IMG/VR virus record: IMGVR_UViG_2565956624_000022
Location: 1 to 28,080 of that record
Source: a virus
Taxonomy: Duplodnaviria > Heunggongvirae > Uroviricota > Caudoviricetes
Length of the DNA: 28,080 bases
Strand: one strand, 5' to 3'
This document shows positions 641-17,755 of this stretch, in pieces (the first letter of the stretch is position 1; each line of letters begins with the position of its first letter). The notes beneath the pieces were generated by a model. That model ran no database searches. It saw nothing but the letters and a program-made list of their open reading frames with translations, and was not told where the DNA came from. The position numbers and the translations under genes are program-made.

Positions 641-1183
641 ATGAATTATCCAACTATCGTTGACGGCATTGATTTCAAAGAACTGGTTTTTATTACCAAC
701 AATGACCCTGTCACCGATTCATTTATGGTGGCGAAAGCATTTCGTAAGCGACATGACAACGTTGTGCGTGATGTAGAAAGAACTATCGCTGCTTGTCCTG
801 AAGAGTTTGATACAAAACTCAATTTTGAGGTTTGCTATAAAAACAATGAGTTACAGAATGGTAAGCCACAAAAATTCTATCGGCTACGTAAGGATGGGTT
901 GATGCTTTTGGTTATGTCCTACACCAAAAAAGAAGCAATGCGTATCAAAATTGCTTACATCAACGCATTCAACTGGATGTACGCCATGCTTCAGGTTGGT
1001 AATCGTCAATTTGAAGAAGAGCGAAATTCCGTAATGCTGGAGTACATGAAAGAGAAGGATGTTGCCAGCATGTCAGGTCGCCTGCTTAATCGCTGGGGAA
1101 AAATTAAGAAGCCTCAGCTACTGGCGAGAATTGAACGCCTTGAACAGCACGGGCAAACCGTAATCCCCGGACTCACTAATTAA
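641..1183 (+). CDS. Rha-family phage regulatory protein
   Basis: 180 aa; N-terminal KRHDNVVRDVERTI signature typical of the Phage_pRha domain; sits between lysis cassette and terminase. Confidence 0.7.
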   Translation: MNYPTIVDGIDFKELVFITNNDPVTDSFMVAKAFRKRHDNVVRDVERTIAACPEEFDTKLNFEVCYKNNELQNGKPQKFYRLRKDGLMLLVMSYTKKEAMRIKIAYINAFNWMYAMLQVGNRQFEEERNSVMLEYMKEKDVASMSGRLLNRWGKIKKPQLLARIERLEQHGQTVIPGLTN

Positions 1184-13198: not shown

Positions 13199-13413
13199 AG
13201 TACCCGTTCATGGAGGAGGAGACTCTTCCGGCAAAACTCGTTAGCCCCGTAAACGTCACACCATCAATGAACGCCATTATCTGTTCAGGAAAAGCCACTT
13301 ATACCGATTTGCAGGAACGGTTATCTGTTCGTGATATGTATAACCTTCTGGAAATTATCTCGGTGGAATCATTTAACAAGCGGGTCTGGAATAAACATCA
13401 GGAGCAGCGATGA
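13177..13413 (+). CDS. -1 frame extension of the tail assembly chaperone (gpGT-like product)
   Basis: The -1 frame is open from the slippery site at 13174-13180 to 13413 and abuts the tape measure start; classic G/GT arrangement. Confidence 0.45.
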   Translation, partial: FNDRRRVKYPFMEEETLPAKLVSPVNVTPSMNAIICSGKATYTDLQERLSVRDMYNLLEIISVESFNKRVWNKHQEQR

Positions 13414-15224
13414 TTATCAATGAGTTGGCCTACAAGGTCACAATTAAGGCCGATGAATTCCTGAATGGAAAACGGAAAGTAAAAGATGAAGTTAGTAAAT
13501 TAAACAAAGATCTTTCCAGGGCTGAGAAGGAAAGGCTAAAGGAACTTGAAAAACAGCGGCAGGAAACGGAGAGGTTCGGTAAAACCGCTGTTTCAGCTTT
13601 CCGCAACGTGACAACAGCAGCCGCTGGATTTTTGGGAATTGGCGCCGGGTTGTATGGAATTAAGCAACTTTTTACATCTACTGCCAACGAAATTGTGAGG
13701 GCCAGCCAACAGGCCAAGTTTTTCGACTCTGATGTTAATAAGATGTTTGGTGTTCAGCGGGGATTTCGCCAGGCTGGTCTTAACGGTGACTCGTTCATTT
13801 CATCTTCTGGGAATGCCAGAATGGCTTTGGCAAATATTGCCGATCCGACTGTTATGGGAGGGCTTACTGGCGCTGCCCAAAATTTGCTGATTCTTGGAGC
13901 TCGTACCGGATTAGATATCAATAAGCTCGGCGACCCAAACAAGGCTCTTGCTGAGTTTTCTCGCTATGGCAAGACTCATTCTCAAGAAAACCTGATGCAG
14001 GTGATGGCTGCCGCAGGGTTCGATCCGACAGATGCCGCTAAAATAAAATCAGGGGAACTTAAGCAGCTTGTCGATTCAGAAACAAAGAAATCCCGTATTA
14101 CAGCACAGCAGGTAAAAGAGCAGGAGAAGGTTGCTGCCACTCTTGGGCAACTTGATTCAGAGTTTTCCCGATTAAAGCAAAATTTAGCCATGGCATTCGC
14201 TCCAGACGTTATTGACGGGATGAAGGCTTTTGGTTCCTGGATTGAGAAACATCATGGCGACATCATTGGCTTTTTCAATGACGCCGGGAATATGACTAAG
14301 CAATTCACAAAGGCAGTTGGTGGTGCGGAAGAGGCTCTGAAGCTATTGGCAGCAGCATATGTAGGAAGCAAACTTACAGGCGGCGCCCTTCCTCCATGGT
14401 TAGCAGGGTTAATAGCATATGGTTTGTATCTCTACAATGACAGGGAAAACATTGAGGGTGCTGCTAAAGGATCGTTTGATTACTCTAAGCGTGAACTTGG
14501 AGATACCATGCGCAGCATGGGGTTTGATACCGATTTTGGGCGTAGAGGCGATGAGATTTATGGCAATAACATTCAGCCAGATATCCCTCTCCCTGACGGA
14601 GTAAAGCCAGTAAGCATGGATTCTCTCCTTGATGCCATTCGTGAGGTGGAATCGAGCGGTGGCAAAAAACTTTATAGCCCGAAAGGTGCTGTTGGTCCGT
14701 ATCAGTTCATGAAGGATACTGCCATAGCGTACGGGTTAAAGGTCGGGGATGGGATTGATGAGCGTCTTGATGAAGTGAAATCTCGCGCTGCTGCTGAAAG
14801 GTTCATGAGGGATTTGCTAAAGCACTATAAAGGCAATGTTAACCATGCGCTGATGGCTTACAACTGGGGGATGGGCAATGTAGACAAAAAGTTAAAATAC
14901 ATATCCAGTACCGGGTTTGATTCACCATCATCCAAATACTGGAACACCCTGCCGAAAGAAACGCGAGAATATGTACCAAAGATTCGCGCCGCTCTTAATG
15001 CAAAAGAAAACGAGACGCTGGCTTACTATCAGCAGCAGCAACGCATCGCCTCAACACCAAACCAGACAACATCAAAAATTGACAACAGCCGTAGCAGCAG
15101 TACAACTATTGGCACGGTAGTTGTTAACAGTAACCCGACAACAGTTGATGCTCTTACCAGAAGCGTCAATCAGCAAGTTAGCCGGGCGTCAACAAACGCG
15201 GCATTTTCCAGTGCAATGCCTTAG
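13410..15224 (+). CDS. Tail tape measure protein with C-terminal lytic transglycosylase (SLT) domain
   Basis: 604 aa; coiled-coil N-terminus (EKERLKELEKQRQETERFGK); SLT-like motifs (AIREVESSGG...GAVGPYQFM...ALMAYNWGMG). Confidence 0.65.
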   Translation: MIINELAYKVTIKADEFLNGKRKVKDEVSKLNKDLSRAEKERLKELEKQRQETERFGKTAVSAFRNVTTAAAGFLGIGAGLYGIKQLFTSTANEIVRASQQAKFFDSDVNKMFGVQRGFRQAGLNGDSFISSSGNARMALANIADPTVMGGLTGAAQNLLILGARTGLDINKLGDPNKALAEFSRYGKTHSQENLMQVMAAAGFDPTDAAKIKSGELKQLVDSETKKSRITAQQVKEQEKVAATLGQLDSEFSRLKQNLAMAFAPDVIDGMKAFGSWIEKHHGDIIGFFNDAGNMTKQFTKAVGGAEEALKLLAAAYVGSKLTGGALPPWLAGLIAYGLYLYNDRENIEGAAKGSFDYSKRELGDTMRSMGFDTDFGRRGDEIYGNNIQPDIPLPDGVKPVSMDSLLDAIREVESSGGKKLYSPKGAVGPYQFMKDTAIAYGLKVGDGIDERLDEVKSRAAAERFMRDLLKHYKGNVNHALMAYNWGMGNVDKKLKYISSTGFDSPSSKYWNTLPKETREYVPKIRAALNAKENETLAYYQQQQRIASTPNQTTSKIDNSRSSSTTIGTVVVNSNPTTVDALTRSVNQQVSRASTNAAFSSAMP

Positions 15225-15281
15225 TCACCTGTAACGTTTTCTCTGTTTGTGCCTGTTGACTGAAGTCGGACGGTAAAAATG

Positions 15282-15307
15282 AAAACCCACCGTCAGGTGG
15301 GTTTTTT
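15282..15307. terminator. Bidirectional Rho-independent terminator
   Basis: AAAA-ACCCACC-GTCA-GGTGGGT-TTTTT: A-tract / perfect 7-bp stem / T-tract; between the convergent tape measure (+) and Mnt-like (-) genes, overlapping the latter's stop codon. Confidence 0.7.
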
Positions 15308-15613
15308 GTTTAGCAGTTCTCTCAACTTTTCGTTCTGCTCTCTGAACTTTTCCTGTATTTCTTTTTGCATGGCGATAACCTGGGCTTGAAGTTGAACTAG
15401 CGCATCAACATTTAGCGGAACCGAGACGCTGTTGATTTTATCTGCTATTTCCCCAAGAGTATTTTCTGCATTCAAGGCATCTTCCAGTATCTGCACAATC
15501 TCTGAGTTCATTGATCTGCCGTTTCGTTTGGCTCGTTCAGCTATAGCATCTCGCATCCCGTCAGGGAAACGCACAACAAACTTTTCGTAATCTTTAACCT
15601 GCTTTTCAGCCAT
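15293..15613 (-). CDS. mnt: Ribbon-helix-helix repressor, P22 Mnt-like
   Basis: 106 aa; N-terminal FVVRFPDGMRDAIAERAKRNGRSMNSEIVQILEDAL matches the Arc/Mnt RHH signature (NGRSMNSE); C-terminal coiled coil; divergent from an Arc-like/Ant pair as in P22 immI. Confidence 0.7.
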   Translation of the reverse strand: MAEKQVKDYEKFVVRFPDGMRDAIAERAKRNGRSMNSEIVQILEDALNAENTLGEIADKINSVSVPLNVDALVQLQAQVIAMQKEIQEKFREQNEKLRELLNKKPT

Positions 15614-15632
15614 AACATCACCTCAAAAAAAA

Positions 15633-15693
15633 CAATGATGGCATATTGCTATTTATATTCAATGATGGCATATTGCTTTCAAGGCATAATGCC
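15633..15693. promoter_or_regulatory. Divergent promoter/operator region
   Basis: Two identical 18-bp direct repeats CAATGATGGCATATTGCT (15633-15650 and 15660-15677) plus an 11-bp palindrome GGCATAATGCC (15683-15693) sharing the TGGCAT half-site, between two divergent RHH genes. Confidence 0.6.
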
Positions 15694-15715
15694 ATTACGT
15701 AAAAAGGAGTGATCA

Positions 15716-15877
15716 ATGGAAAAGAATGAAGTGAAGACAACTCTTCGGTATCCGTACCGTTTTAAGGAGGAGGTGAAACGCATCGCTAAGGAAGAGGGGA
15801 TGTCAGAAAACTCAGTGTTGGTTCAGGGACTTGCTTGGTGGTTGAAGTACCGGGAGAAAATGCGGAATGCTCTCTAA
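15716..15877 (+). CDS. arc: Small ribbon-helix-helix regulator, P22 Arc-like
   Basis: 53 aa (MEKNEVKTTLRYPYRFKEEVKRIAKEEGMSENSVLVQGLAWWLKYREKMRNAL); AAGGAG 7 nt upstream; beta-strand then two helices as in Arc; directly upstream of an antirepressor; too short for the ORF track. Confidence 0.55.
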   Translation: MEKNEVKTTLRYPYRFKEEVKRIAKEEGMSENSVLVQGLAWWLKYREKMRNAL

Positions 15878-15948
15878 AAATAACGAAGCCCCGACAGCGG
15901 GAACTGGCGAGGCTTCTACATCAACAAATCTGATCGGGAAATATTGAC

Positions 15949-16827
15949 ATGAAAAGTATAGCAAAGGCACAAAACGATTTCACCATCTTCAAATTCGGCG
16001 ACAGTGAAATCCGCGTCATCAACAAGTGCGGTGAGCCGTGGTTTGTAGCAAAAGATGTTTGTGATGCTTTAACCCTGACTAACTCACGCAAGGCGCTTAC
16101 TGCACTTGATGACGATGAGAAGGGAGTAACTTTAAGTTACACCCTTGGTGGTGAGCAGAATTTAAGCATTGTGAGCGAATCAGGTATGTATACATTGGTT
16201 TTGCGCTGCCGCGATGCCGTCAATAAAGGTTCAGTCCCGCACAAATTCCGCAAGTGGGTAACAGCAGAAGTTCTGCCTTCAATTCGCAAATATGGCGAGT
16301 ATGTGAAAGGCAAGAAAACCACAGTTGAGGAAAGAACACCGCTACGCGATGCAGTAAACATGCTGGTAGGAAAGAAAGGACTTCGCTATGACGATGCATA
16401 CAATATGGTTCATCAGCGTTTTGGTATTGACAGCATTGATGAACTTTCAATTGAACAAATCCCGCAAGCCGTAGAGTACATCCACAGGGTAGTGCTTGAA
16501 GGTGAGTTCATTGGCAAGCAAGAGAAGAAAGCAAACGAGCTTTCTGCAAAAGAAGCAAACAGCCTTGTATGGTTATGGGATTATGCCAACCGCTCACAGG
16601 CATTATTCCGCGAACTGTATCCGGCATTAAAACAAATTCAATCGAACTATTCCGGCAGATGCTACGACTACGGCCATGAGTTTTCGTATGTTATCGGAAT
16701 GGCGAGAGACATTTTAATAAAACACACACGAGATGTTGATATCAATGAGCCAGACGGACCAACGAATCTTTCCGCATGGATGAGACTTAAGAATAAAGAA
16801 TTACCTCCTTCAGTACATAACTACTGA
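15949..16827 (+). CDS. ant: Antirepressor, Bro-N domain family (Ant-like)
   Basis: 292 aa; N-terminal [30 protein letters not shown] is a classic Bro-N signature; downstream of the Arc-like gene. Confidence 0.8.
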
Positions 16828-16845
16828 CAGATAAACAACGCAACG

Positions 16846-16869
16846 ACCCAGCTTCGGCTGGGTTTTTTT
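16846..16869 (+). terminator. Rho-independent terminator (copy 1 of a repeated terminator)
   Basis: ACCCAGC-TTCG-GCTGGGT followed by TTTTTTT; near-identical to the terminator at 17715-17739. Confidence 0.7.
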
Positions 16870-16937
16870 ATACCCAAAATTCACCGTGTCCACGCTTAGG
16901 TAATGAGCTTGAAGGAGAGCACTACACAAAAAGTGTA

Positions 16938-17483
16938 GTGCAAAAAGCGAACAAAACTTCGATGGTTATCATTGAGATGTCAATCAAGCAAGCATTGCGA
17001 GTTGCCGCTCGCGAGTCAAAAGCCGTTCGCCGCTCACTGGTAGACCAACTTGAAAGTATGCAAGAAGCGCACATTAAAAGCGGTAAATCAGCGAGTGGAC
17101 TTGTTGAGTATCGTCAAGCGCGAACATTGAAAATGACGGTTGAAGCTGTTACCAATCTGTTCGATCTGATGCCAAATCTTGCGCCTGAGGCAAAGCAGAC
17201 AGCGGCAGCAAGTATAATCAACCCGCTCGTTGGTTTTAATGCAATACCTCTTCCGGCAATAGAAGAGCATTACTACTCAGCAGGGGAGGTTGCAGAGCAG
17301 CTTGGAGTAACGGCCAACAAGATTGGTCGCATTGCTAACGCAAACAACATCAAAACTGAGCAGTACGGGAAGTTCTTCCTGGATAAATCGGCGCATTCCA
17401 GCAAACAGGTGGAAGCATTCCGCTACAATGCGGAAGGTGTTAAAGCACTACAACACCTGATTCATGGGAGTAATGTTGCATAA
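16938..17483 (+). CDS. Hypothetical protein, possible DNA-binding protein
   Basis: 181 aa; GTG start at 16938 (AAGGAG at 16912-16917; alternative ATG at 16962); C-terminal stretch YSAGEVAEQLGVTANKIGRIANANNIKTEQYGKF looks HTH-like; no family recognised. Confidence 0.55.
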   Translation: MQKANKTSMVIIEMSIKQALRVAARESKAVRRSLVDQLESMQEAHIKSGKSASGLVEYRQARTLKMTVEAVTNLFDLMPNLAPEAKQTAAASIINPLVGFNAIPLPAIEEHYYSAGEVAEQLGVTANKIGRIANANNIKTEQYGKFFLDKSAHSSKQVEAFRYNAEGVKALQHLIHGSNVA

Positions 17484-17704
17484 TGGCAAAGAAAAAATAT
17501 GGCATTATGCCGCCAAGAATCAAAGGAAGAGCCAGGGTAAAAGGCGATGCTGGGAGATATCACATTCTTGGTGTTTTGTGGCATGAGAGAGCTTTAATTT
17601 TAAGCAGACCTCATGGGTACATTGAAAAGGTATCTATAGATAGAATTGAGATTCTTCCCCTTACTCCTGAAGAAGAAGAAACGTACGGACTTTTTGATAA
17701 CTAG
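17483..17704 (+). CDS. Hypothetical small basic protein
   Basis: 73 aa; start overlaps the upstream stop (TAATG); basic N-terminus; no family recognised. Confidence 0.5.
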   Translation: MAKKKYGIMPPRIKGRARVKGDAGRYHILGVLWHERALILSRPHGYIEKVSIDRIEILPLTPEEEETYGLFDN

Positions 17705-17714
17705 CCAATTCACT

Positions 17715-17739
17715 AAACCCAGCTTCGGCTGGGTTTTTT
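17715..17739 (+). terminator. Rho-independent terminator (copy 2)
   Basis: AACCCAGC-TTCG-GCTGGGTT followed by TTTTTT; same stem-loop as 16846-16869. Confidence 0.7.
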
Positions 17740-17755
17740 GTTTAATGGAGAGTAG

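Follow-up and report, generated by a model that had tools for sequence, protein, structure and literature searches.

A P22 immunity I-type antirepressor cassette in the contractile-tail operon of an Escherichia coli prophage

What is a group of genes resembling the immunity I (immI) switch of phage P22 doing among the tail genes of a temperate phage, and are all parts of the switch there? The question is raised by a window of 28,080 nucleotides (the whole stretch of viral DNA analysed here, positions 1 to 28,080 of IMG/VR record IMGVR_UViG_2565956624_000022), in which an earlier note had read a Mnt-like repressor, an Arc-like regulator and a Bro-N antirepressor arranged around one promoter, inside the tail region of a phage with a lambda-like backbone. 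The three open reading frames lie where that note had put them, one on the minus strand (mnt-like, 15293..15613, 106 aa) and two on the plus strand (arc-like, 15716..15877, 53 aa, directly 5′ of ant; and ant itself, 15949..16827, 292 aa), and matches to Pfam, PHROG and P22 proteins identify them as genuine genes. The mnt-like gene diverges from arc-like and ant, which is the P22 order just as had been proposed, and the location in the tail region is also correct: the cassette, extending from about 15214 to 17715, is found 3′ of the tail sheath gene, flanked by an SLT/tape-measure gene (13410-15224) on the left and by the baseplate genes (from 17756 on) on the right. We will argue that the cassette is a complete but ordinary copy of the P22 immunity I switch. 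It is in our view quite likely that the region represents a P22 immI-type “ant moron”, a self-regulated antirepressor cassette of ~2.5 kb in a variable late-operon slot, which would work by homology with P22.

Both small proteins contain the RHH motifs that had drawn attention to them, RNGRSMNSEI in the 106-aa protein and EEGMSENSV in the 53-aa protein, and alignment to P22 Arc, Mnt and Ant, a check suggested at the outset, revealed homology for all three proteins of the trio. In the Mnt-like protein the RHH domain occupies the N-terminal part (residues ~8-54). The protein matches Pfam Arc (PF03869) with 69.9 bits and an E-value of 1.6e-19, over the curated cutoff of 20.4, its RHH domain is 47% identical to that of P22 Mnt over 43 aa (E 2e-11), and a sequence search of the PDB returned AmrZ (6e-9), Mnt (1mnt, 3e-6) and Arc (1e-3). 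Structure prediction, also suggested as a check, agrees with this picture, as the AF2 model of the Mnt-like protein matches RHH structures in Foldseek (AmrZ with a probability of 1.0, Arc with 0.96). When the models of both small proteins were compared with the PDB, nothing was returned at E <= 0.001, and only the ranking, in which low-rmsd RHH proteins come up, is informative. AF2 placed a helix where the N-terminal strand of the Mnt-like protein was expected, which we set aside as an artefact of modelling a monomer; it gives the beta-ribbon no support. Further along the chain a long C-terminal helix is predicted (residues 69-102, pLDDT ~88-92), and the family ends in a conserved NKKPT tail. 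The Mnt-like protein may oligomerise, and the sequence of its C-terminal domain does not resemble the tetramerisation domain of P22 Mnt; with 106 aa against 83 aa it is a longer protein with an unrelated C-terminal domain.

The 53-aa protein was recognised as an RHH Arc, as in P22, through several comparisons. It matches phrog_582 “Arc-like repressor” (E 1.6e-10) and aligns in register with P22 Arc (38% identity over 29 aa), and a profile built from its family aligns, again in register, with the solved P22 Arc structures (E 1.4e-4), whereas its score of 17.5 bits against Pfam Arc stays below the cutoff of 20.4. The Arc-like and Mnt-like families were matched to each other by hhalign (84%, E 8e-6), and their beta-strand recognition patterns are alike, K-x-T-x-R in the Arc-like and K-x-V-x-R in the Mnt-like protein. 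The AF2 model (pLDDT 80), with an extended N-terminus followed by two helices, is RHH-like.

Two RHH proteins side by side may also be taken for a partition, plasmid-stability or toxin-antitoxin system instead of an antirepressor switch. RHH folds are common in antitoxins, relatives of these proteins are labelled “plasmid stability protein” in some sources, and PHROGs 795 and 2685 bear the label “partition protein ATPase”. However, the cassette contains no gene for an ATPase or a toxin, and what lies across the divergent spacer is an operon for a P22-type Ant with a sar RNA. Since RefSeq puts “partition protein ATPase” on P22 mnt too, the label is a propagated mis-annotation; we rejected this reading as an annotation artefact and give it hardly any credence.

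The antirepressor gene was first noticed for its Bro-N domain, which is indeed present at the N-terminus (residues 20-110; Pfam, E 5.6e-20), but the protein is not merely Bro-N. Its C-terminal part (residues 122-292) is of the P22 Ant type (P22_AR_C, E 5.4e-29, 100.6 bits) and shares 83% identity with P22 Ant over these 171 aa. The protein also matches phrog_245 “anti-repressor Ant” (E 3.6e-111), and a sequence search of the PDB gave no match for it. The N-terminal 121 aa do not align with P22 Ant, whose N-terminal domain is P22_AR_N in place of the Bro-N of the cassette. Judged by these domain matches, Ant is a chimera in which only the N-terminal domain has been swapped relative to P22 Ant, and because this domain is unlike that of P22, its target range may differ. 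The resident repressor (WP_000428318.1), a protein of 238 aa composed of HTH and S24 parts, has 40% identity to P22 C2, and its C-terminal domain is well conserved.

By analogy with P22, Ant would act as an antirepressor and might mediate cross-induction between prophages. The exchange of P22_AR_N for Bro-N invites another reading, in which the cassette is intact and Ant spares the resident repressor, acting mainly in trans on other prophages or phage-inducible islands of the same cell, or in which Bro-N makes Ant a DNA-binding regulator and not a classical antirepressor that binds repressors. Such a role would suit a cassette that moves freely among phages with differing immunity regions and a prophage that has two further Rha-type antirepressor-like genes, and trans-acting antirepressors are documented (PMC3121763). 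The close identity of the Ant C-terminus to P22 Ant, together with a resident repressor that resembles C2 and has kept its C-terminal domain well, speaks against this reading, which we regard as unlikely. P22 Ant is broad-range, and action in cis and in trans are therefore not mutually exclusive.

If Ant is to be kept under control as in P22, the spacer between mnt-like and arc-like should hold promoters and operators. A standard promoter scan reported none in this spacer, and for that reason we used a laxer scorer of our own, which recovers the annotated Pant and Pmnt promoters of P22. Its best sigma-70-like sites lie at distances equivalent to those in P22, and six cassette types have kept them. 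One is a candidate Pmnt-like promoter on the minus strand (15635..15662, TTGAAT-16-CATCAT with a TG extension), located 21 nt before the mnt ATG, a position kept in other cassette types. The other is a candidate Pant-like promoter on the plus strand (15646..15674, TTGCTA-17-CATATT with a TG extension), where the distance from the end of the -10 to the arc ATG is 41 nt, compared with 39 nt in P22 and 39-45 nt in five other cassette types. Both agree with the consensus at only 8 of 12 positions. The two candidates overlap by 17 bp, and divergent transcription, which had been attributed to one promoter, would thus start from two overlapping divergent promoters and not from a single shared one.

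The putative operator region (15633..15696) is made up of repeats, a palindrome and three GGCATAWTGC cores. An 18-nt perfect direct repeat occupies 15633-15650 and 15660-15677, the palindrome GGCATAATGCC is found at 15683-15693, and an imperfect inverted repeat of 31 bp spans 15665-15695. Exact cores start at 15640, 15667 and 15683, which makes three in 54 bp with only one other in the 28 kb. As with Omnt in P22, the palindrome falls at about +1 of the Pant-like candidate, and a box lies over the -10. Comparison of the intergenic region with P22 Oarc and Omnt gave no alignment and no similarity, and in this respect the cassette differs from P22, the GGCATAWTGC repeats being unrelated to the P22 operators. 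The boxes are conserved or co-varying in related cassettes. When box sequences were compared across loci with the beta-strand sequences of the two repressors, boxes 1 and 2 went with the Mnt type in two Arc contexts and the palindrome with the Arc type (locus L042). Any assignment of boxes to one protein or the other on this basis is confounded by physical linkage, since every box adjoins the gene with which it varies, and cassettes of the GF-2 type depart from the pattern.

The fourth component of immI, a sar-type antisense RNA, did not figure in the earlier note. A sar-like RNA of ~73 nt is located on the minus strand at 15876..15948, where it is antisense to the spacer between arc and ant and covers the ant ribosome-binding site. 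The layout is that of P22: sar occupies the arc-ant spacer, has a promoter that lies within ant and ends with a terminator at the stop codon of arc. The Psar-like promoter was reported by the promoter scan in the 5′ end of ant (15955..15983, minus strand, GTGAAA-17-TATACT with a TG extension), at the position of the annotated P22 Psar; its -10 is conserved in 15 or more loci and invariant in P22 and Kapi1, with which the RNA itself was aligned. The RNA is shaped as a 5′ hairpin, whose loop presents an anti-Shine-Dalgarno sequence, and a terminator hairpin that leads into a U-run at the 3′ end. Rfam RF00262 matches it over the full length; with 28.5 bits (E 0.0059) the match does not reach the gathering score of 43. 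Covariation was counted in the terminator stem only, because the MAFFT register in the 5′ hairpin is not structure-aware, and there 97% of cells are paired and 7 of the 14 pairs are compensatory; none of 500 shuffles matches these values, and slid controls collapse. For the 5′ hairpin each sequence was folded singly, and the two-hairpin fold turned out to be common to all of the 14 diverse homologs (14/14, each folded alone). Position, promoter, terminator, fold and covariation all point to a putative sar RNA that covers the ant ribosome-binding site.

Terminator hairpins delimit the cassette. The terminator scan identified T1 (15283..15312), a bidirectional hairpin of repeat family D1, and T2 (16844..16873, plus strand), which follows ant and belongs to the repeat family; T3 (17715..17744, plus strand) repeats the hairpin of T2 and shares 87% identity with T1. 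T1 ends both the upstream tail transcript and the mnt-like transcript and forms the left boundary; its loop contains the mnt stop codon, and its arm the codons for the final N-K-K-P-T. T3 forms the right boundary, 11 nt before the ATG of the baseplate gene (17756), and the backbone homology of relatives restarts at 17715-17717. A more speculative picture has two parts. With recognition patterns as similar as those of the two repressors, the circuit may be a simplified immI, in which both compete for the same three GGCATAWTGC boxes and do without separate Oarc and Omnt operators; and the T1/T2/T3 hairpin, encoding NKKPT, could be the recombination joint by which the cassette moves between podovirus, siphovirus and myovirus tail operons. 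Taken as a whole, we consider this possible rather than probable.

Two further reading frames lie between T2 and T3. The first is the 5′-truncated remnant of a second antirepressor gene (16938..17483, plus strand, a 181-aa ORF), which matches phrog_1726 “anti-repressor” over profile positions 76-264 of 264; RefSeq treats 16893-17483 as a pseudogene “missing N-terminus”, and matches 91-98% identical to the fragment adjoin tailspike genes in P22-like loci (L045-L059). The second is a 73-aa ORF of unknown function (17483..17704, plus strand; phrog_4977, 5e-54) that co-occurs with the second antirepressor gene. This truncation means that the region does decay, and the trio could then be a decaying and functionally inert passenger as well, a moron remnant without influence on lysogeny. 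The weak promoter matches would fit such a fate, as would the ant morons of HK620 and Scho1, known to contain degraded ant genes (PMC2629481), and the fact that some relatives are without the cassette altogether. Yet all three ORFs are intact, and several independent loci in different contexts conserve them at 97-100%; the repeats of the boxes are perfect, and the sar hairpins keep their pairing through compensatory changes. Near-full copies of the cassette are moreover present in 12 complete E. coli genomes. We hold an inert passenger to be very unlikely, and the reading of the region as a P22 immI-type ant moron is the one we follow.

The host element is a prophage of E. coli FDAARGOS_1288, integrated at the lambda attachment site between ybhC and ybhB-bioA. 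The “lambda-like backbone” ascribed to it is right for the genes of early functions, regulation and lysis, most of them outside the window and arranged in the lambda-type order according to the RefSeq annotation (int-xis, CI/Cro/CII, O/P-like, nin, Q, lysis), but wrong for the virion genes. A tail sheath (phrog_205, 1.3e-103), a baseplate hub and baseplate J are not of the lambda (siphovirus) type, and the virion gene set is that of a GF-2-type myovirus with a contractile tail. When the whole window was compared by Megablast with 50,697 phage records, nothing closely related to the structural genes came up; the context was taken from E. coli genomes and from a more sensitive search, which found GF-2.

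Edwardsiella phage GF-2 (Gofduovirus), a temperate myovirus, shares the sheath, tube, SLT “lytic tail protein” and baseplate set as well as the lambda-type cI/cro/cII regulation, and in the equivalent slot it carries a trio of Arc-like (minus strand), Arc-like (plus strand) and Bro-N Ant. DNA identity reaches only about 75% across arc and the beginning of ant, and about 65% in the baseplate genes. In contrast to the cassette described here, the GF-2 Ant is without P22_AR_C, and its Mnt-like protein is shorter (89 aa), with an extra gene adjoining. In Edno5, a temperate myovirus related to GF-2, Ant, Mnt and Arc have been described as parts of an “ImmI” region (PMC6372524); the host of both phages is Edwardsiella, compared with E. 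coli here.

The switch of P22, too, lies beside tail genes in the late operon, and gtrABC stands at the prophage end in both, whereas the virion is that of a podovirus in P22 and of a myovirus here. In P22-like phages (epsilon34, Kapi1, L and others) the “ant moron” is known as a highly variable, independently regulated late-operon insert, often consisting of mnt-arc-sar-ant (PMC2629481, 2008), from which the present moron differs by its place in a contractile-tail operon. Kapi1 is 96% identical in DNA over its sar and ant part, while its Mnt and Arc are of a different type and not closely related. Stx-converting and related lambdoid siphophages (for example 2851, YYZ-2008 and 1717) have ~89% DNA identity across the mnt-like gene and the left-hand half of the intergenic spacer, and their Arc, of 57 aa, is different. 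Their cassette is likewise placed within the tail operon, between lambda-type tail genes, and their Ant has a C-terminus of the P22_AR_C type but is otherwise P22_AR_N-type. Most Stx-type IMG/VR loci gave no sar-like match, L020 and L032 being the exceptions. The mnt-like gene is unannotated in several Stx-type phage records, and in the record of phage 2851 arc and ant are annotated as overlapping. The slot varies among E. coli relatives, the cassette is mosaic and mobile, and with GF-2, Edno5 and the P22-like ant moron as precedents, the trio in a tail slot is not unusual.

Following the P22 example, the working of the cassette can be pictured in this way. In a lysogen, the 106-aa Mnt-like protein would be made from the weak leftward promoter and would bind the GGCATAWTGC boxes that overlap the rightward promoter, keeping arc-ant silent. 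After infection, or after loss of Mnt, the rightward promoter would fire briefly until it is shut off by the 53-aa Arc-like protein, and on read-through transcripts the ~73-nt sar-like RNA would pair with the ant ribosome-binding site and block ant translation. Ant, if made, would bind and inactivate a CI/C2-type repressor, in the resident case the 238-aa HTH + S24 protein, and so might derepress its own prophage or other prophages. RNA-seq of Kapi1 has shown that mnt is not expressed in lysogens (PMC12922286), and regulation may therefore deviate from that of P22; the Kapi1 papers contain no experiment with its Ant.

As the system is textbook, one more copy adds little conceptually. What the locus does provide is a clean example of a four-part switch, antisense RNA included, transplanted into a contractile-tail operon, and with it a clean example of domain swapping in Ant and of terminator hairpins serving as module boundaries. 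About 21% of complete E. coli genomes carry parts of the cassette. Antirepressor cassettes offer a second, SOS-independent route of induction and can cross-induce co-resident prophages, and carriers of an intact mnt-arc-sar-ant therefore matter for predicting prophage stability and gene transfer.

A cassette resembling the immunity I (immI) region of phage P22 lies among the tail genes (~15214-17715), where it carries mnt-like and arc-like repressor genes, a sar-like antisense RNA, the antirepressor gene ant, a remnant of a second antirepressor gene (ant2) and a 73-aa ORF. The earlier note had proposed such a module from three ORFs, of 106 aa (15293-15613, minus strand), 53 aa (15716-15877, plus strand) and 292 aa (15949-16827, plus strand); all three occur exactly there and are ruled out as chance ORFs, and both motifs it had quoted, NGRSMNSE and EEGMSENS, were found. 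The module is confirmed as an observation, and its interpretation is supported, with corrections.

Pfam Arc (PF03869) detects the 106-aa Mnt-like protein at 1.6e-19, and the protein is 47% identical to the ribbon-helix-helix (RHH) domain of P22 Mnt over 43 residues. Among solved structures its sequence matched AmrZ (6e-9), Mnt (3e-6) and Arc (1e-3), and its predicted structure (pLDDT 79.5) matched AmrZ (prob 1.00) and Arc (0.96). Beyond the RHH part the model has a confident long C-terminal helix (69-102) and fits a Mnt-type design of RHH plus a presumed oligomerisation helix. This C-terminal part has no sequence similarity to that of P22 Mnt; among family members it is exchanged freely, in contrast to the highly conserved RHH domain. 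PHROGs 795 and 2685, two families matched by the protein, are labelled “partition protein ATPase”, as is P22 mnt in RefSeq (locus L003, NC_002371, 14519-14770); since P22 mnt itself carries this label, we rejected it as a propagated mis-annotation.

Evidence is weaker for the 53-aa Arc-like protein, which scored 17.5 bits against Pfam Arc, under the cutoff of 20.4. It matches phrog_582 “Arc-like repressor” (1.6e-10) and is 38% identical to P22 Arc over 29 aa in an in-register alignment, and its family profile matches P22 Arc structures (E 1.4e-4) and the RHH domain of the Mnt-like family (hhalign 84%, E 8e-6). In the predicted structure (mean pLDDT 80) an extended N-terminal segment precedes two helices (16-27 and 31-52), the topology of an RHH monomer. 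Foldseek gave no statistically significant match for this very small protein; its low-rmsd matches were nearly all RHH proteins (AmrZ, Arc, CopG, VapB, MazE6). In three Salmonella variants (P0004, P0006, P0007) the octapeptide EEVKRIAE is tandemly duplicated once or twice inside helix A.

The 292-aa protein, described earlier as a Bro-N antirepressor, does contain Bro-N (5.6e-20), but can be named more precisely by its P22 antirepressor C-terminal domain (5.4e-29). Its residues 122-292 share 83% identity with residues 130-300 of P22 Ant, whereas the N-terminal 121 residues do not align with P22 Ant. P22 Ant combines P22_AR_N with P22_AR_C, an architecture shared by the Ant of Stx phages, and the Ant of Edwardsiella phage GF-2 joins Bro-N to a different C-terminus, while the protein in the window joins Bro-N to P22_AR_C. 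From this domain comparison, the sequence therefore identifies it as a chimera, a genuine homolog of Ant whose N-terminal domain has been exchanged.

The earlier note overlooked the fourth immI component, the sar antisense RNA. In the P22 record sar is annotated on the minus strand of the arc-ant spacer, with its promoter within the first ant codons and its terminator abutting the arc stop codon, and the window has the same layout. A sar-like RNA is predicted at ~15876-15948 (minus strand) from a promoter-like site (GTGAAA-17-TATACT with a TG extension, 15983 to 15955, minus), a terminator-like hairpin (15905 to 15887, minus), alignment with P22 and Kapi1 of the -10, the complement of the ant start codon and the hairpin, and an end-to-end match to the Rfam sar model RF00262 (15881-15947, minus; E 0.0059), which at 28.5 bits is under the gathering score of 43. 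Among 15 distinct sar-like sequences gathered from related loci, 97% of cells in the terminator stem are standard pairs, with changes on both sides in 7 of 14 pairs; none of 500 shuffles was as good, and sliding the partners by 1-3 columns reduced pairing to 30-50%. Folded singly, 14/14 gave the same two-hairpin shape despite differing stem sequences, and in each the loop of the 5′ hairpin holds the anti-Shine-Dalgarno sequence. The annotated ant starts of Kapi1 (L006 2499-2570) and GF-2 (L004 7368-7490) overlap arc and cross conserved sar-like hairpins, and in the window an in-frame stop lies in the region of these 5′ extensions. Both records likely over-extend ant and omit sar; translation probably begins further downstream, at an ATG that is conserved.

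Between mnt and arc lies a spacer of 102 bp that aligns with its counterparts in GF-2 and Stx phage 2851, though not with that of P22. Within it an 18-nt sequence is repeated perfectly in direct orientation (15633-15650 and 15660-15677), the segment GGCATAATGCC (15683-15693) forms a perfect palindrome, and an imperfect inverted repeat covers 31 bp (15665-15695). The core GGCATAWTGC occurs in three exact copies within 54 bp, the third inside the palindrome. One other exact copy exists in the 28-kb window (GGCATAATGC, minus strand, 17502-17511), where the 73-aa ORF begins. A standard promoter scan found nothing in the spacer; a laxer purpose-written scorer, whose top hits in P22 were the annotated Pant and Pmnt, gave two weak matches that we infer to be promoters. 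The rightward candidate (TTGCTA-17-CATATT, 15646-15674) leaves 41 nt between its -10 and the arc ATG (39 nt in P22), and the leftward candidate (TTGAAT-16-CATCAT, 15662 to 15635) ends 21 nt before the mnt ATG; both distances recur across six cassette types, several with near-consensus hexamers. As in P22, the predicted promoters overlap, with a box over the rightward -10 and the palindrome at about +1. In some recombinants boxes 1 and 2 follow the Mnt beta-strand type and the palindrome follows the Arc type, although physical linkage ties every box to the gene it follows, and spacers of the GF-2 type do not fit the pattern.

Homology with the backbone of E. coli relatives stops at 15213 and restarts at 17715-17717. 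A 30-nt terminator hairpin present in three direct-repeat copies, T1 (15283-15312, overlapping the end of mnt), T2 (16844-16873) and T3 (17715-17744), brackets both the whole cassette and the ant2/73-aa ORF sub-segment, and the stem differences between T1 and T3 are compensatory. T1 holds the mnt stop codon in its loop and the last codons, N-K-K-P-T, in its arm (15293-15310, minus), so that NKKPT is kept at the end of an otherwise variable C-terminus because the arm encodes it, and its conservation probably reflects the terminator and not protein function. Since the hairpin is the sequence common to every junction examined with relatives of differing cargo, it is suggested to be a recombination joint. 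Downstream of ant lies the 5′-truncated ant2 (16938-17483; phrog_1726 positions 76-264 of 264; a RefSeq pseudogene), followed by the 73-aa ORF (17483-17704); their matches (91-99% identical) adjoin tailspike genes in P22-like contigs (L045-L059).

In GF-2, a myovirus with the same tail genes, an Arc-like(-)/Arc-like(+)/Ant trio occupies the same slot, between the tape-measure and baseplate genes. One E. coli relative has another Arc/Ant cassette in this slot, along with a gene pair of the Panacea-domain kind, and a second relative has no immI genes there. The Panacea-domain protein and its 139-aa partner (L087 3632-4499; L088 4210-5077), found with or without an immI-type cassette, may be toxin-antitoxin or defence cargo. 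The mnt-like gene also occurs, at 89% identity and together with arc-ant, between the lambda-type tail genes of Stx siphophages such as 2851, and in P22-like Kapi1, whose “mnt-arc-ant locus” was mentioned recently (PMC12922286), a 96% identical sar-ant segment lies between ejection protein and tailspike genes. Across 80 viral contigs with a Mnt-like gene, identical mnt and arc occur in myovirus (L007-L010, L012) and P22-like (L011) contexts, and the same mnt is paired elsewhere with other Arc and Ant types; the cassette is a mosaic. Its parts occur in 1138 of 5426 complete E. coli genomes, the near-full combination in 12. Casjens and colleagues named such a variable late-operon insert the “ant moron” and counted sar as one of its components (PMC2629481).

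A prophage of E. coli FDAARGOS_1288 is 100% identical to the window and is inserted at the lambda attachment region, with ybhC on one side and ybhB-bioA on the other. The proposed lambda-like backbone holds for its early half (int, xis, recT, sieB, HTH and S24 repressor, cro, cII, replication genes, nin region, Q and lysis genes) but not for the virion half, which by gene content is not lambda-like: a DUF1073 portal, an SLT-containing tape-measure-like protein, a tail sheath (phrog_205, 1.3e-103), baseplate hub and J proteins and a fibre, then gtrABC. The gtrA/gtrB/type-specific gtr O-antigen modification operon (24407-27155, minus) stands at the prophage end adjoining ybhB, the same relative position as in P22. 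The resident repressor and P22 C2 share 40% identity, with conservation strongest in the C-terminal domain. Two more antirepressor-like genes are present, Rha plus ORF11CD3 past the lysis genes (window 641-1183) and Rha plus KilAC (ANT) in the nin region (prophage locus L002, 5054-5776).

By homology with P22 (PMC2629481, PMC12922286), the Mnt-like protein would keep the rightward promoter silent during lysogeny, the Arc-like protein would close it after a burst during infection, and sar would pair with the ant ribosome-binding site to block translation. Ant, once made, would inactivate a CI/C2-type repressor and lift immunity, possibly in trans on other prophages. The homology, architecture, RNA structure and repeated boxes are shown by the analysis; we infer the promoters, the operator assignment, oligomerisation and the activity and target of Ant. 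Against a simple carry-over of the P22 model stand the differing operators, the swapped Ant N-terminal domain, the weak promoter matches, Arc and sar scores under curated thresholds, and the reported lack of mnt expression in Kapi1 lysogens (PMC12922286). The system is well known, and the same arrangement in the same phage type is already in the literature: a 2019 paper on Edno5, a GF-2 relative, explicitly noted that these lambda-regulated myoviruses bear an ImmI region like that of P22, comprising Ant, Mnt and Arc (PMC6372524). To this we make modest additions, namely the full four-part switch including sar, a chimeric Ant, a common operator core, and terminator hairpins as candidate module joints.
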